Shown one piece after another: positions 11,065-16,022 of a DNA stretch of 34,480 bases. The notes beneath the pieces are model-generated. The model saw only the letters and a list, made by a program, of their open reading frames with translations, searched no databases and was not told the DNA's origin. The stretch is from Lentisphaera sp. (GTDB lineage: Bacteria; Verrucomicrobiota; Lentisphaeria; Victivallales; GWF2-50-93). Made by a program: the position numbers and the translations under genes. The DNA is taken from NCBI GenBank assembly GCA_020721745.1, contig DYMC01000001.1:1-34480 (forward strand), written 5' to 3'. Position 1 is the first letter of the stretch. Each line of letters opens with the position of its first letter.

Positions 11065-11093
11065 TTTACAAGTCCATTGCGCCGCGCTAGAAT
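11065..11093 (+). promoter_or_regulatory. Sigma70-like promoter (TTTACA-N17-TAGAAT)
   Basis: tttaca at 11065-11070, a 17 nt spacer, and tagaat at 11088-11093, in the 85 nt gap after the SNF2 gene. Confidence 0.65.
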
Positions 11094-11136: not shown

Positions 11137-11538
11137 ATGACCAAGACCACCCAAGCTGACGCCGTCAAGTTCTACGCCCGCCGCGACTCCGCCACCGCGG
11201 TGCTCCGCAAAATGGGCGTCCACGCCCGCGACTACAACGCCTTCATCGAGGTGATGAGCGACGGCCAATTCGCCTGCCACATCGCTCGTGCTGAGATGTA
11301 CCTCGAGTCCCTGAAGAACCCCAAGCCTGCTGAGACCAAGGCCGCCAAGGCTGCGCGCCCCGCTGCTGGGACCAAGCGGACGGGCATCTCCGCTACGGCC
11401 CGGGCCCTGATCCTGGCCGGCAAGACCAACCAAGAGGTGTGGGCTGAGCTCAAGCAGCAGTTCGATCTTGACGATTCCAAGAAGCACTACCCCACGTGGT
11501 ACCGCTGCGAGATGAAGCGTAAAGGCCAGTTGGTCTAA
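11137..11538 (+). CDS. Hypothetical protein with an Ala/Lys/Pro linker and a conserved C-terminal domain (paralog of 11903-12544)
   Basis: C-terminal ISATARALILAGKTNQEVWAELKQQFDLDDSKKHYPTWYRCEMKRKG aligns by eye with the C-terminus of the 11903-12544 product. Confidence 0.7.
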   Translation: MTKTTQADAVKFYARRDSATAVLRKMGVHARDYNAFIEVMSDGQFACHIARAEMYLESLKNPKPAETKAAKAARPAAGTKRTGISATARALILAGKTNQEVWAELKQQFDLDDSKKHYPTWYRCEMKRKGQLV

Positions 11539-11677: not shown

Positions 11678-11913
11678 TCAGCGATCCCAATAGCATTGAG
11701 ATTCGCGACGAGAGCACCGACGAGGAGCAGCGCTTCCAGCTCTACATCAATGGCGGTCCTCGCGCAATGCTCAGCAAGAAGCATGGCACCGTGCAATTCC
11801 ACTGGCAGGTCTACGGCCCACAATACTGGCCTGGGGCCAAGGTCCTGATGCAGGGCCTGCTGGAACTGTCGGTGCTGGCTGATCAACTATATGGAGAGAA
11901 GAATGGCAAGTAA
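11674..11913 (+). CDS. Hypothetical protein (79 aa)
   Basis: ORF coupled to both neighbours. No motif recognised. Confidence 0.6.
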   Translation: MISDPNSIEIRDESTDEEQRFQLYINGGPRAMLSKKHGTVQFHWQVYGPQYWPGAKVLMQGLLELSVLADQLYGEKNGK

Positions 11914-12544
11914 AAAACCAACGCCGGGCATCATCCCGTGCTATGACCGCCAGCGCCGCACCTGCATTCAGGTTGAGCGGACTGACACCCACGTGAAGTA
12001 CATCCCGCTCGACGTCAATGAGGGCCTGCAGGTTTTGACGGCGGCGGCAAACGAGTTCGACCAGTGGTATGAGCCGATGGTCAACTACCCCGCAGAGAAG
12101 GCGTGTCAGTTGTTCCTCAACTACAGCCAGACCATCGGGGCAACCAAGGAGGCCTTGGGTTACCTGGGCCAGATTGTTAACGTGTCTAAACAGGAGGCCG
12201 ATATGGCAACCACCAATAAGACTGCGGCGACTGAGAAGGCTGCCGCCACCAAGACCGCTGCGAAGAAGGTAGCTCCCGCAAAACCTGCCGCAAAATCTGC
12301 CGCCAAGACGGCTCCGGTCAAGACAGCTAAGCCTGCTGCAAAACCAGCGGCCAAGACTGGCGAGAAGAAGACGTCTGCAGCCCAGATGTTCCAAGACCTG
12401 ATCATGCAGGGCAAGCTGACTGACGACCAGATTTTCGAGAAGGTCCAAGCTCAGTTCGGTCTGGATGAGAAGAAGCGCGGGTACACAAAATGGTATCGGA
12501 ACTATCTCAAGAAACAAGGCATGAATCCTCCTGAGGCAAAGTAG
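11903..12544 (+). CDS. Histone H1/AlgP-like protein (KPAAK-type repeats) sharing a C-terminal domain with 11137-11538
   Basis: ATG at 11903 follows ggagag. Low-complexity TAAKKVAPAKPAAKSAAKTAPVKTAKPAAKPAAKT is followed by SAAQMFQDLIMQGKLTDDQIFEKVQAQFGLDEKKRGYTKWYRNYLKKQG. An in-frame internal ATG at 12203 has an aggagg RBS. Confidence 0.7.
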   Translation: MASKKPTPGIIPCYDRQRRTCIQVERTDTHVKYIPLDVNEGLQVLTAAANEFDQWYEPMVNYPAEKACQLFLNYSQTIGATKEALGYLGQIVNVSKQEADMATTNKTAATEKAAATKTAAKKVAPAKPAAKSAAKTAPVKTAKPAAKPAAKTGEKKTSAAQMFQDLIMQGKLTDDQIFEKVQAQFGLDEKKRGYTKWYRNYLKKQGMNPPEAK

Positions 12545-12647
12545 ATAACCAGCTGTTCAATCTTGAACGGTGTACGGCCTCTGAAAAAAACTCACTCCAC
12601 GCCTATAGAGTATTGGGTGTGGGCAACACACGAAAGAGGTAATCATC

Positions 12648-13460
12648 ATGGCCAAATCCAAAGAAGTTTCACGCGACTCCCGCGACTACGACACCACCCA
12701 GCTACGTGAGGCAGGCCACGGCCGCACGCTTCACAGAGATTATTCCGCACATTTTTTCCGCTGGAGCTTTGCCCGCCGCTTCATCTCGGCCAAGGACAAC
12801 GTCCTCGAGGTCGGCTGCGGCGAGGACAAGCCGCTCAGCAAGATCCTGACTGGCGGAGCTGCTGCTCACGTTGGCCACTACACCGGCGTGGATCTGAACA
12901 AGCTCAAGCCGTCTAACAACCAGCGTCTGGAGTTCCACGGCGAGTTCAACTTCGTCGAGCGCTACAAGGAGTTGCTCAAGAAGCGTCCCGAGGGTTGGGA
13001 TGTCGTCGTTAACTACGAGGTCATCGAACACATGAAGGTCGAGCACGGTGCCAACCTGCTCAAGGCCATGTTCGCCTGCACCAAGCCGGGCGGTGTCCTG
13101 CTGCTCTCGACCCCGGTCTACGATGGCAAGCGCCACGCGGCCAACCACATCCACGAGTACACGGTGCCTGAGCTGCAGAGCTACATCGAGAAGGCTGGCT
13201 ACGTGGTCGAGCGCCGTTTCGGCACGTTCATGGACATCAAGCACATCGGCAAGGCCGACCCCACCGGCTGCAGCAAGGCGGCTGTGCTGGAGATTCGCAA
13301 GGCTTTGGAGCAGTACTTTGACAACGACGCCATCAGCAACATCTTTGGCCCGCTGTACGAGGACCATGCTCGCAACAACCTCTGGGTCTGCCGCAAAGCC
13401 GCTGACGGCAAGCCGGTCAAGCCTGCTCGCAAGACCACCACGAAAGGAGCGCCGTTCTGA
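12648..13460 (+). CDS. Class I SAM-dependent methyltransferase (small-molecule/UbiG-like type, not a recognisable DNA MTase)
   Basis: Motif I VLEVGCGEDKP, an acidic post-I residue (GVDLN), NYEVIEHM, and a KPGGVLLLSTP motif. No DPPY or PCQ DNA-MTase motifs. Confidence 0.85.
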   Translation: MAKSKEVSRDSRDYDTTQLREAGHGRTLHRDYSAHFFRWSFARRFISAKDNVLEVGCGEDKPLSKILTGGAAAHVGHYTGVDLNKLKPSNNQRLEFHGEFNFVERYKELLKKRPEGWDVVVNYEVIEHMKVEHGANLLKAMFACTKPGGVLLLSTPVYDGKRHAANHIHEYTVPELQSYIEKAGYVVERRFGTFMDIKHIGKADPTGCSKAAVLEIRKALEQYFDNDAISNIFGPLYEDHARNNLWVCRKAADGKPVKPARKTTTKGAPF

Positions 13461-13858
13461 TGATTGGCAATGTCGCTGAGTTCCACGAAAAGTTCGGCCT
13501 CCCTATGGGGGCTGTTGATCAACTCATGAACGACCCGGCAGCTCAGGAGTTCCGGGTCAAGTTCTTGCAAGAGGAGCTAGACGAGCTCAAGGAGGCGCTC
13601 GCCGAGGGCAACCGCGTGAAGGTGTTCGACGCTCTGCTGGATCTGGTCTACGTAGCCTACGGCACGGCGCTGTTCGCTGGCATCGATGCAGCTCAGTGGC
13701 ACGCTGGCATGGACGCCGTCCACTCGTGCAACATGGCCAAGGTCCGTGTGGCCAAGGCTGAGGACAGCAAGCGGGGCAGCGCCTTCGATGTCAAGAAGCC
13801 GGAAGGCTGGACTGGCCCCGAGGCGCGCCTGGAGGAGATTCTGTCATGGACCAAGTGA
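13460..13858 (+). CDS. MazG/HisE-like all-alpha NTP pyrophosphohydrolase (candidate dCTPase/dUTPase)
   Basis: LQEELDELKEAL (EExxE) and FDALLDLVYVAYG metal-binding helices. 132 aa. TGATG overlap with the methyltransferase gene. Confidence 0.8.
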   Translation: MIGNVAEFHEKFGLPMGAVDQLMNDPAAQEFRVKFLQEELDELKEALAEGNRVKVFDALLDLVYVAYGTALFAGIDAAQWHAGMDAVHSCNMAKVRVAKAEDSKRGSAFDVKKPEGWTGPEARLEEILSWTK

Positions 13859-14757
13859 GCTGCAAGCTGACGATCTTCGAGGGCCCGGACGGTGGCGGCA
13901 AATCGACTGCCGCCCAGTCCTACGCCCAGATGACCGGCGCCAAGTACGTGCACTTCACCTCGCTGCCTCGCGTCGGCAAGAACCTCGGCCGCATGTACGT
14001 CGAGGCCATGATGCCGGCGCTGCTTGGCTACCAGGACGTGGTCTTCGATCGCTGCTGGCTGAGTGAGATGCCGTACGGCGTCGCGTTCCGTGAGGGCAAG
14101 GATCGCTTGACGTCGGCCAGCCGCCGGATGCTCGAGCGGCTGGCCATGCGGTGCGGCGCTGTTGTGGTCAAGTGCCAACCCAGCTGGGAGACCGTCAAGG
14201 CCAACTACCTCAGCCGCAAGCACATCGAGATGCTGGACAACGAGTACCAACTCAAGACGGTCTACGACCTCTATGCTGAGCAGCCGACGGACTTGCCCTT
14301 GGTGGACTACGACTACACGAGGGGCGACCTGTTCGAGGTCAACAAGGTGGCTCTGCTGATCGATGGCCTGCGTATGCGCCAACACCCGCTTGGTCTGGCC
14401 TCGGCTGGCAACTGGGACGCCCGGATCGTGCTGATCGGCGAGTCGTTTGCTGAGCGCGAGGACAACGATCCCTGGTACCAGTGGCCCTTCGCCTCGTTCA
14501 GTGACGAGGGTTGCAGCCAGTGGTTGGCCGACCAACTGGACCTGATCGAGGTTGGCGAGGACGACATCCTCTGGCTGAACTCCGATCAGGACCTGTCCGT
14601 GCTGTATGACCTGGCGCCTGAGCGCATCATTGCCATGGGCACGGAGGCCTACCAGCAGCTGTACAAGCTCAAGATCAAAGCCGCTTCGGTCCAGCATCCC
14701 CAGACCTGGAAGCGCTTCAACTTCAAGCAGCGCTACCCGTTGCTTGACCTCATCTAA
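13846..14757 (+). CDS. Fusion: thymidylate-kinase-like P-loop dNMP kinase (N-terminal) + degenerate uracil-DNA-glycosylase-superfamily domain (C-terminal)
   Basis: The N-terminus has LTIFEGPDGGGKST (P-loop) and FDRCWLSEMPYG (TMK DR motif). The C-terminus (~aa 175-303) has IVLIGESFAERED...WPFAS...GCSQWL, resembling the family-4 UDG motif A (GEAPG..E...G.PF.G..G..L), and SVQHPQTW, resembling motif B (HPS). Confidence 0.75.
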   Translation: MDQVSCKLTIFEGPDGGGKSTAAQSYAQMTGAKYVHFTSLPRVGKNLGRMYVEAMMPALLGYQDVVFDRCWLSEMPYGVAFREGKDRLTSASRRMLERLAMRCGAVVVKCQPSWETVKANYLSRKHIEMLDNEYQLKTVYDLYAEQPTDLPLVDYDYTRGDLFEVNKVALLIDGLRMRQHPLGLASAGNWDARIVLIGESFAEREDNDPWYQWPFASFSDEGCSQWLADQLDLIEVGEDDILWLNSDQDLSVLYDLAPERIIAMGTEAYQQLYKLKIKAASVQHPQTWKRFNFKQRYPLLDLI

Positions 14758-14767
14758 GGAGAACAAC

Positions 14768-15553
14768 ATGCAAGACTTTTCACGCACTTGGCTTGAGGCC
14801 GTCAACGACATCTTGACCAACGGTGACCTCGTGGCACCGCGCGGCAAGATGACCCGTGAGATTCCGCAGCGCACCATCGTGGTGAACATGCGGAAACCCG
14901 TGCTCCGCGTGCCCGACCGCAGCCTGAGCTACAAGTTCATGGCGGCCGAGGCCTTCTGGATCCTGACTGGTGACGACCGGGTCGAGACGATCGCCCCGTA
15001 CAACAGCCGCATCAAGGACTTCAGCGACGACGGCGAGCGCTTTTTCGGCGCCTACGGCCCCAAGATCGTGGCCCAGCTGCCCTACATCATCGAGAAGCTG
15101 CGGGCCGATGAAAACAGCCGCCAAGCTGGCCTGACGATCTGGCGCGAGTGCCCGCCCCAGACGAAGGACGTGCCCTGCACGGTGGCCATCTTCTTCAACC
15201 TCCGTGGCGGCAAGCTCAATGCCCACGTGTTCATGCGGTCGAGCGACGTCTGGCTGGGCGTTCCCTACGACGTCTTCAACTTCAGCATGCTGAGCCACCT
15301 CGTCTGCGGCCTGCTGAATGGGCACCGACTGGCCGCTGATGCCGTGTCGCCTGGCAGGCTGTTCCTGACGGCGGCCAGTAGCCACCTGTACGAGACCAAC
15401 TGGGAGGACGCGAAGCTGTGTCTGGCCAGCCAGGTGCTCGATCAGGTTGAGACGCCCAAGCTGCTGTGGAACGACCCGGCCTACCTGATGTCGGAGCTCA
15501 AGATGATCCGTGACAGTCGGCCGGGTGACGCCTGCCGTTGGTGGGAGCTGTAA
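14768..15553 (+). CDS. ThyA-fold pyrimidine C5 hydroxymethylase/methylase, predicted dCMP-specific (T4 gp42-like)
   Basis: aaggag RBS. Catalytic Cys in VPCT (codon at 15176-15178). FMRSSDVWLGVPYDVFN aligns with E. coli ThyA YQRSCDVFLGLPFNIAS. Asp (15269-15271) replaces the dUMP-specifying Asn. SSHLY matches DTHLY. Confidence 0.8.
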   Translation: MQDFSRTWLEAVNDILTNGDLVAPRGKMTREIPQRTIVVNMRKPVLRVPDRSLSYKFMAAEAFWILTGDDRVETIAPYNSRIKDFSDDGERFFGAYGPKIVAQLPYIIEKLRADENSRQAGLTIWRECPPQTKDVPCTVAIFFNLRGGKLNAHVFMRSSDVWLGVPYDVFNFSMLSHLVCGLLNGHRLAADAVSPGRLFLTAASSHLYETNWEDAKLCLASQVLDQVETPKLLWNDPAYLMSELKMIRDSRPGDACRWWEL

Positions 15554-15554
15554 C

Positions 15555-16022
15555 ATGAGACCCAGCCGCGACGAATGGGCCCTGAAACTGGCCCTGCTGA
15601 CTGCCCAACGAACGACCTGCCGCCGCCGAGCAGTTGGCTGCGTGCTGCTGAACGCTCGTGGCCACGTGCTGGCCACCGGGTACAACGGCGTCGCGGCTGG
15701 CCTGCCTCACTGCAACCACCATGACCCGTACTCCGAGACGGGGTTCCCCCACGCCTGCTCAGGAGCCAACTCACCGAGCGGGACGAACCTCGACGGCTGC
15801 CAGGCGATCCACGCTGAGCAGAACGCTATGCTCCAGTGCAAGGACGTCTACAGCATCCACACGTGCTACGTGACGACCAGCCCGTGCATGACCTGCGTCA
15901 AGCTGCTGCTCAACACCAGCTGCGAGAGGATCGTCTTTGTGGAGGAGTACCCGCACTCGGCGGCTCGGGAGCTCTGGGCAGGCACCGGACGGGCCTGGGA
16001 GCAACTTCTTGTGGAGATTTGA
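15555..16022 (+). CDS. dCMP deaminase (zinc-dependent cytidine/deoxycytidylate deaminase fold)
   Basis: HAEQNA and SPCMTCVKLL zinc-binding motifs. ATG lies 1 nt after the stop of the upstream gene. Confidence 0.9.
   Translation: MRPSRDEWALKLALLTAQRTTCRRRAVGCVLLNARGHVLATGYNGVAAGLPHCNHHDPYSETGFPHACSGANSPSGTNLDGCQAIHAEQNAMLQCKDVYSIHTCYVTTSPCMTCVKLLLNTSCERIVFVEEYPHSAARELWAGTGRAWEQLLVEI

Follow-up and report, generated by a model that had tools for sequence, protein, structure and literature searches.

The 34,480-nt contig DYMC01000001.1 of a Lentisphaera sp. assembly (GCA_020721745.1) carries a gene for a class I S-adenosylmethionine (SAM)-dependent methyltransferase (MT). This MT belongs to a large, uncharacterised and phage-restricted family which shows the behaviour of an optional tailoring step in the 5-hydroxymethylcytosine (5hmC) pathway. 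The whole contig, of 34.5 kb and binned into a 2.4-Mb metagenome-assembled genome (MAG), is referred to as the window. The MT gene is followed by genes for a MazG-like enzyme, a deoxynucleoside monophosphate (dNMP) kinase-like protein, a thymidylate-synthase-fold protein (ThyA homologue) and a deoxycytidine monophosphate (dCMP) deaminase (Table 1). It is probable that the MT acts, in some form, on the hydroxymethylated cytosine product of this cassette. That its reaction is the O-methylation of 5hmC to 5-methoxymethylcytosine is a more tentative proposal, held at somewhat less than even confidence. A first-pass annotation of this DNA had suggested that the MT modifies a nucleotide or a modified base. 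This suggestion is borne out in so far as the enzyme is of the small-molecule type, lies in a cytosine-targeting block and shows the pattern of a tailoring gene, while the O-methylation of a hydroxymethyl group which it named stays an inference.

Linkage to a ThyA homologue of the dCMP-hydroxymethylase type

The ThyA homologue of the window is predicted to be a dCMP 5-hydroxymethylase, and the block is accordingly predicted to target cytosine. In ThyA homologues, a change of N177 to Asp (E. coli numbering) leads to the selection of cytosine, an acidic residue at L143 is a marker of non-methyl products and a change of D169 to Asn is the mark of 5-hydroxy-dCMP synthases (PMC13326640). The window protein exhibits Asp143 (within DVPC), Cys146, Asp169 and Asp177 (within PYD), which is the dCMP-hydroxymethylase pattern, and its best match in the PDB is the CMP hydroxymethylase MilA (E 9e-16). 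Due to this pattern, the block resembles the T4 route to 5hmC DNA. The same four residues are found in 85 of 85 ThyA homologues encoded on the same contig as an MT, including all 75 which adjoin the MT, in addition to the window's own. Two neighbouring pathways are ruled out by these positions. A thymidine hypermodification of the 5-hydroxymethyluracil type (M6/ViI-like) is incompatible with Asp, rather than Asn, at N177, and with the cleavage at AATT and TTAA of DNA from the cultured phage AXL3, which possesses all five genes. A 5-hydroxycytosine pathway, which would lead to 5-methoxycytosine by O-methylation, is incompatible with position 169, where Asp rather than Asn is present in 85/85.

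Among 80 IMG/VR loci with an MT gene, 70 contain a ThyA homologue in the fetched flank, usually in the order MT, MazG, kinase, ThyA, deaminase, and six of the ten remaining loci end just 3' of the MT. Loci from the separate searches overlap, and all counts refer to loci and not to independent phages. In six phage records the MT and ThyA genes are not adjacent; in five of these a ThyA-family gene lies at another place on the contig, and the sixth record is only 38% complete. A 356-aa neighbour in a ThyA-less record (L093) was considered as a divergent ThyA and rejected (hhalign probability 0.1). The cassette is kept in an unrelated podovirus at an MT identity of 30%. Fetching loci by the ThyA homologue instead recovers an MT in 61 of 80 cases. 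About eight of the 19 loci without an MT are cut at their upstream edge, and about 11 have ample upstream sequence and retain the same helicase and H1-like neighbours. The dependence is one-way: the MT needs a cytosine-type ThyA homologue on its contig, whereas the ThyA homologue also occurs without an MT. For this reason, the MT behaves like an optional tailoring enzyme acting downstream of 5-hydroxymethyl-dCMP.

Where the MT is missing, a different set of genes can take up the same region. A module of a pyridoxal phosphate (PLP)-dependent enzyme (PALP fold), an SGNH/GDSL protein and an uncharacterised protein is present at 8 of the 19 loci without an MT and at none of 227 loci with one; it occurs in six of the roughly 11 MT-less cassettes with ample upstream sequence. 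The PLP-enzyme and SGNH module looks like an undescribed alternative for tailoring 5hmC. Accessory modules which exclude each other on a core 5hmC pathway are expected to be alternative tailoring steps, as in the case of the T-even glucosyltransferases. The module was located at 5736-8793 in L226, 4129-6117 in L227, 4639-9054 in L250 and 4386-8665 in L248, with uncharacterised proteins of 380-477 aa.

Public data contain 710 clusters of the MT family at 90% identity. Clustering at 50% gave 120 representatives (E <= 1e-30), and 503 IMG/VR stretches carry a member; these numbers show that the reading frame is not a chance one. When 185,579 species genomes were scanned, only 10 loci were recovered, of which seven belong to MAG contigs of phage size (35-54 kb), two to short fragments and the last to a contig of 635 kb. 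Family members occur almost exclusively in phages. A bacterial setting outside phages was rejected, as nine of the ten loci lie on phage-size contigs or fragments and the tenth has uninformative neighbours. This tenth locus (L167, 7848-9686), from the MAG of an uncultured proteobacterium, is the sole case of a family member within a contig of chromosome size. Its product is a 612-aa protein with an N-terminal MT domain followed by about 350 aa of no recognised kind; a metallophosphoesterase gene and serS lie nearby, and the ThyA cassette is absent from its 16.7-kb locus.

Two cultured phages carry the MT gene. In AXL3, the MT is 72% identical to that of the window; PW916 is the second. Of their ThyA homologues, AXL3 gp28 (MT536174.2) is labelled thymidylate synthase in the deposited record and PW916 ORF60 (OL960029.1) deoxyuridylate hydroxymethyltransferase. 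Both annotations are probably wrong, since Asp at the N177 and L143 positions indicates dCMP hydroxymethylases.

Sequence, fold and nearest relatives of the methyltransferase

The 270-aa protein shows motif I, the motif II acidic residue, a family score above its cut-off and the fold of class I SAM-dependent methyltransferases. The three motifs on which the first-pass annotation based this assignment were all located: VLEVGCGEDKP at residues 52-62 (12801-12833), NYEVIEHM at residues 122-129 (13011-13034) and KPGGVLLL at residues 146-153 (13083-13106). Motif I is VGCG (residues 55-58), and D82 is the acidic residue of motif II. Pfam Methyltransf_23 is matched at 54.3 bits (E 1.7e-14), above its cut-off of 27, and Methyltransf_11, _12 and _25 are matched as well. 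The catalytic motifs of DNA N6, N4 and C5 methyltransferases were likewise correctly described as missing. The amino-methyltransferase motif (D/N/S)PP(Y/F/W) is absent from the 270 residues, which contain no PP dipeptide at all, and the motif IV position reads EVIEH; neither a PC dipeptide nor ENV is present in the sequence, PF00145 is not matched, and the Pfam scan returned no DNA-methyltransferase family, those for N6 and N4 included. These results support a small-molecule-type class I enzyme rather than a canonical DNA methyltransferase.

Conservation was read from two alignments (A1 and A2) of 31 to 40 sequences reaching down to 31% identity. In these, G56-C57-G58 of the SAM site and D82 show complete or almost complete conservation, and the same applies to E124, E127, H128, H167, E170 and S154-T155-P156 among the 40 representatives. 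A family-specific N-terminal motif, HRDYxAHxFRW (residues 29-39), is also conserved. This pattern speaks for a probably active enzyme with an intact SAM site. By contrast, the basic C-terminal tail, which had been pointed out before and is indeed found at residues 255-270 (KPVKPARKTTTKGAPF), is specific to the lineage: most family members terminate without it, shortly beyond a conserved NNLWV..K (alignment A1). The predicted isoelectric point (pI) of the MT is 9.2, or 8.7 without the tail, whereas the values of the four downstream pool enzymes lie between 4.5 and 7.6.

An AlphaFold2 model of the MT has a class I fold (predicted local distance difference test score 87.9). Foldseek searches of the PDB and BFVD returned many class I methyltransferases of the generic small-molecule type with a probability of 1.0 and template-modelling scores of about 0.5, together with one uncharacterised phage homologue. 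Because only generic class I enzymes are matched, no particular substrate is indicated by the fold. The family profile is more informative against the PDB, where it matches UbiG (4e-11), HENMT1 (5e-10), plant HEN1 (2e-9) and bacterial Hen1 (2.8e-9); Hen1 and UbiG are also the top NCBIfam matches. The nearest characterised relatives, judged by such profiles, are O-methyltransferases (UbiG and Hen1/HENMT1). The MT is filed in neither family, as its scores fall below both curated cut-offs: 33.6 bits against 340 for the Hen1 model TIGR04074, of which only positions 284-450 of 462 are covered, and 31.2 bits against 102.95 for the UbiG model TIGR01983.

In plant HEN1, Glu796, Glu799, His800 and His860 are the ligands of the Mg/Mn ion which grips the hydroxyls to be methylated (PMC10781085). 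The MT residues E124, E127, H128 and H167, which are invariant across the family, are aligned to E110, E113, H114 and H162 of bacterial Hen1 (chain 3jwg). The alignment supports the view that the MT has retained a metal site of the Hen1 type, which would suit the methylation of an aliphatic hydroxyl, and may use a metal. The carboxy-SAM synthase CmoA was considered as another possible identity and rejected: TIGR00740 is not among the NCBIfam matches of the MT (E <= 0.01), the CmoA structure 1im8 is reached only at E 2e-4 by profile, and no CmoA is present in 12 phage records in which the MT has a C5-transferase partner (see below).

Proposed reaction and alternative explanations

In the proposed mechanism, the MazG-like enzyme would clear dCTP, the ThyA homologue would convert dCMP to 5-hydroxymethyl-dCMP and the kinase would begin the conversion of the latter to the triphosphate, which the phage polymerase would install as 5hmC in place of C, giving 5hmC DNA. 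The MT would bind SAM and a divalent metal via E124, E127, H128 and H167. The metal, perhaps with H128 as the base, would activate or deprotonate the primary alcohol (5-CH2OH) of 5hmC, and transfer of the methyl group from SAM to 5-CH2OH would yield 5-methoxymethylcytosine. This step would most likely occur on DNA after replication and less likely on the nucleotide. The resulting cap would conceal the hydroxyl from host enzymes which recognise 5hmC. The comprehensive version of this proposal is slightly more tentative than the reaction alone: the family would be a metal-dependent 5hmC O-methyltransferase of the Hen1/UbiG lineage, and hundreds of environmental phages, as well as AXL3 and PW916, would contain 5-methoxymethylcytosine for C.

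Several observations weigh against O-methylation of 5hmC. We infer the substrate, the methylated atom, the use of metal, the level of action (DNA or nucleotide) and the biological role alike, and a search of the available literature for methoxymethylcytosine or a 5hmC O-methyltransferase returned nothing relevant, providing neither precedent nor contradiction. Hen1 and UbiG lie outside the top 50 Foldseek matches. Since ExxEH is common in the Methyltransf_11/23 group, the tetrad is no more than suggestive, and the metal of Hen1 grips a vicinal diol, which is absent from 5hmC. The basic character of the window protein is no family trait, with pI values ranging from 5.3 to 10.2 across the family. 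The simple model is also incomplete, as some relatives carry CmoX-like C5 transferases which have no obvious substrate in fully 5hmC-substituted DNA. A further point concerns the level of action: the translational coupling to the MazG-like gene and a natural MT-MazG fusion (P0167) would fit a role in the nucleotide pool as well.

Restriction data from AXL3 belong to the same set of cautions. All 35 enzymes tested whose sites include G/C failed to cut its DNA, which is cleaved only by TasI (AATT) and Tru1I (TTAA), and the authors were unable to separate a modification of G from one of C (PMC7504290). MluCI and MseI, isoschizomers of these two, likewise cleave T4 DNA, and 82% of type II enzymes are blocked by 5hmC alone (PMC7653180). 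Since 5hmC alone blocks this many enzymes, the AXL3 digests fit cytosine replacement and are not informative on an extra methyl group; the restriction pattern was discarded as a discriminator between 5hmC and a derivative. Neither the AXL3 nor the PW916 paper contains a nucleoside analysis.

It is unlikely, yet deserves attention first, that the MT acts on the cytosine product or on phage DNA at another atom, as a non-canonical DNA or nucleotide methyltransferase giving for example N4-methyl-5hmC, or on guanine as in the 7-methylguanine (m7G) phage DDVI. The genomic linkage would be identical to that expected for O-methylation of 5hmC, the ambiguity between G and C in AXL3 would be accommodated and a basic protein would be in keeping with a target in DNA. 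Moreover, cap guanine-N7 methyltransferases occur among the weak matches (1ri1, E 0.11 for the single sequence and 4.6e-5 by profile; Foldseek ranks 22-24), many viral capping enzymes are among the fold matches, and the MT of a deposited relative (MW202621.1) is annotated as ‘capping protein’. This has to be set against closest characterised profile relatives which are O-methyltransferases, the lack of (D/N/S)PP(Y/F/W) and an invariant Glu/Glu/His/His cluster with no known role in N-methylation. A guanine target in particular sits poorly with a linkage which is strictly to cytosine-type ThyA homologues (85/85), and m7G is chemically labile in DNA.

A second alternative, which we regard as rather improbable, assigns the MT to the nucleotide pool or to a small-molecule substrate. 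The enzyme would methylate 5-hydroxymethyl-dCMP before phosphorylation, mark or inactivate dCMP, dCTP or another metabolite, or serve to consume SAM, and any change in the DNA would be indirect or absent. Such a role agrees with the small-molecule type of both fold and sequence, with the coupling to the MazG-like gene, with neighbours which are all pool enzymes and with the MT-MazG fusion, although the latter was seen in one homologue and is far outnumbered by fusions to DNA C5-methylase-like domains; the conserved R30 and R38 could bind a phosphate. However, the MT is basic where the pool enzymes are acidic, and both the kinase and the polymerase would be required to accept a methylated nucleotide. 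Phage pyrimidine hypermodification usually decorates a hydroxyl already in DNA (PMC13326640).

The fusions to C5-methylase-like domains were not foreseen in the first-pass annotation. A PF00145 C5 cytosine DNA-methylase domain is present in 8 of 10 long MT homologues, on either side of the MT domain and in some cases interrupted by an intein, and at 23 viral loci MT and C5 gene form a fusion or are separated by no more than a few kb, mostly inside the ThyA-homologue cassette. Examples of the C5-like genes are found at 5224-6570 in L063, 8798-10120 in L068 and 6571-8001 in L074, and of fused genes at 9006-11015 in L085 and 9911-12442 in L086. The occurrence of C5 fusions in both orders and the basic pI of 9.2 hint at a role of the MT at the DNA level, and the recurrent fusion or adjacency points to DNA over the nucleotide pool. 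The C5 partners coexist with the dCMP hydroxymethylase and the presumed dCTPase. A TET route to 5hmC in the C5-methylase-bearing relatives was looked for among 10 neighbour ORFs by Pfam and discarded; five of these had no family and the others were not dioxygenases.

The catalytic Cys and Glu are retained in the C5 domains, which have NPPCA for PCQ, ESV for ENV and Arg/Lys at the position of M.HhaI N304. In the phage enzyme CmoX, Arg at this position binds the carboxymethyl group of carboxy-SAM (PMC12783734). The MT could then be the partner of a CmoX-like C5 transferase, either methyl-esterifying a carboxymethyl group on cytosine (compare CmoM and Trm9) or making a SAM-derived cofactor, a scenario to which we assign a low probability and in which copies without a partner, including that of the window, would use another activity or be relics. 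CmoM appears at rank 37 of the fold matches, and CmoA was not found in 12 phage records carrying a C5 partner, six of them complete; the MT itself is unmatched to CmoA, as described above. The partnership is also far from general, with 199 MT loci lacking a PF00145 gene against 28 having one, no PF00145 match in the window or its whole MAG, and at least one complete phage (L228) which has the C5 gene and no MT.

Least probable, and very unlikely, is a Hen1-like RNA 3'-terminal ribose 2'-O-methyltransferase which would guard host or phage tRNA, or RNA ends after repair, against ribotoxins and whose link to the nucleotide genes would be positional only: with the single sequence, the top PDB match is bacterial Hen1 (3jwg, E 0.0024), which also leads the NCBIfam matches (E 1.5e-8), its four metal ligands are conserved and phrog_4752 (‘tRNA methyltransferase’) is matched at E 2.7e-6, but the score is far under the family cut-off, the Hen1 N-terminal domain is absent, Pfam matches neither Pnkp nor an RNA ligase in the 18 ORFs covered from the left arm and the cassette (the minus-strand structural arm lay outside the scan), and RNA repair leaves both the near-absolute, one-way dependence on the hydroxymethylase-type gene and the mutually exclusive modules unexplained.

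Gene surroundings and comparison with known systems

Table 1. Location of the methyltransferase gene, its signals and the neighbouring genes in the window
Feature	Position	Strand	Remarks
Nearest sigma-70-like site, TTTACA-17-TAGAAT	11065..11093	+	Ahead of two H1-like genes, then MT
Two H1-like genes	11137-11538, 11891-12544		Ala/Lys/Pro-rich, basic, pI 9.6-9.8, common C-terminal domain
Shine-Dalgarno AAGAGG	12634..12639	+	8 nt 5' of the MT ATG; read from sequence
MT, class I SAM-dependent	12648..13460	+	270 aa; phage-restricted family
MazG/PRA-PH-type all-alpha NTP pyrophosphohydrolase	13460..13858	+	Pfam PRA-PH E 3.8e-12, phrog_671 E 2e-24
P-loop dNMP-kinase-like N-terminal domain with extra C-terminal domain	13846..14757	+	phrog_761 thymidylate kinase E 7e-16, residues 7-166
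Thymidylate-synthase-fold protein (ThyA homologue)	14768..15553	+	Pfam PF00303 E 1.4e-21
dCMP deaminase	15510..16022	+	Pfam dCMP_cyt_deam_1 E 2e-19, phrog_174 E 7e-36; GTG at 15510

The MT had been described as heading an operon and as translationally coupled through TGATG to the MazG-like gene. The second statement is confirmed: the TGA stop (13458-13460) has its A in common with the ATG of the MazG-like ORF, and this 1-nt overlap is seen again in close relatives (e.g., L006, L007 and L013). The first applies in part. The MT is the first of five tightly packed nucleotide genes, but the 103-nt gap on its 5' side contains no sigma-70-like site. Sites of this type are a weak call in the window, with two found against 1.1 expected in shuffles. 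The gene order helicase, p133, p217, MT is kept in relatives, where the H1-like pair always sits between an SNF2-type helicase and the MT; the sole promoter-like site for the block precedes the pair.

Within the cassette, the MazG-like enzyme is presumed to be a dCTPase. The NCBIfam matches of the kinase-like protein (13846..14757) are weak. In close relatives whose MTs are 83-96% identical, a protein of about 130 aa (MDQLTLEGFEMKTKSLL...DYNQG...NYAGFF) replaces the gene for the kinase and its C-terminal domain (2869-3267 in L005, 4562-4960 in L007 and 9217-9612 in L016); these phages would therefore be missing a dNMP kinase of their own. The deaminase is likely to start at an ATG at 15555, two bases 3' of the stop of the ThyA homologue.

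The closest functional parallel is found in the alpha- and beta-glucosyltransferases of T4. Like the MT, these enzymes are optional and act beside a dCTPase, a dCMP hydroxymethylase, a dNMP kinase and a dCMP deaminase; they are dispensable for the synthesis of 5hmC, and related cassettes without the MT exist as well. The MT is expected to cap the same 5-CH2OH group. The T4-type pathway families (pyrophosphatase, dNMP kinase and dCMP deaminase) are all present in the cassette by domain, at specificities which are unreadable from sequence, with the difference that the pyrophosphatase is of the MazG type and not homologous to T4 gp56. No glycosyltransferase is found among the left-arm ORFs, and the MT would fill the accessory role in place of a glucosyltransferase. 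In contrast to the T4 glycosyltransferases and to carbamoyltransferases, the MT has an unrelated class I SAM fold, the group transferred would be a methyl group and activity on 5hmC is predicted only. A MetaGPA study has reportedly found a 5hmC carbamoyltransferase.

Among characterised methyltransferases, Hen1/HENMT1 belongs to the same class I subgroup, with an aligned ExxEH...H, and methylates an aliphatic hydroxyl with Mg/Mn. Unlike Hen1, the MT has neither the RNA-binding N-terminal domain nor Pnkp, its context is the modification of DNA cytosine, and its presumed substrate offers one primary alcohol in place of the ribose diol. UbiG/Coq3, the best PDB profile match, has an EMLEH-type motif and the core in common with the MT. 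The MT family differs from it in being restricted to phages and in possessing its own HRDYxAHxFRW motif and a C-terminal lid, and quinone genes are not nearby.

O-methylation of a pyrimidine C5 substituent by class I SAM enzymes is established in tRNA, where CmoM and Trm9 form the methyl esters of 5-carboxymethoxyuridine (cmo5U) and 5-carboxymethyluridine (cm5U), respectively, and TrmR converts 5-hydroxyuridine (ho5U) to 5-methoxyuridine (mo5U). CmoM is among the fold matches of the MT, and the recurrent CmoX-like neighbour echoes the logic of CmoA, CmoB and CmoM. However, the MT shows no specific sequence match to CmoM, Trm9 or TrmR, its substrate would be DNA or a dNMP with cytosine as the base, and the window is without a carboxymethyl-transferase gene.

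Known phage tailoring of 5hmC consists of sugars or carbamoyl groups. If the proposed reaction is true, a one-carbon O-methyl cap would represent a new and very cheap way of concealing 5hmC from enzymes of the McrBC, PvuRts1I/AbaSI and GmrSD types, and 5-methoxymethylcytosine would be a natural base that has so far gone undescribed in DNA. As the family is large and present in common soil and freshwater phage lineages, this base would be widespread and could affect restriction digests of such DNA. Furthermore, a SAM-dependent alkylating enzyme specific for 5hmC could serve the mapping of 5hmC in the manner of beta-glucosyltransferase. Since AXL3 and PW916 are in culture and carry the MT gene, the question is directly testable.

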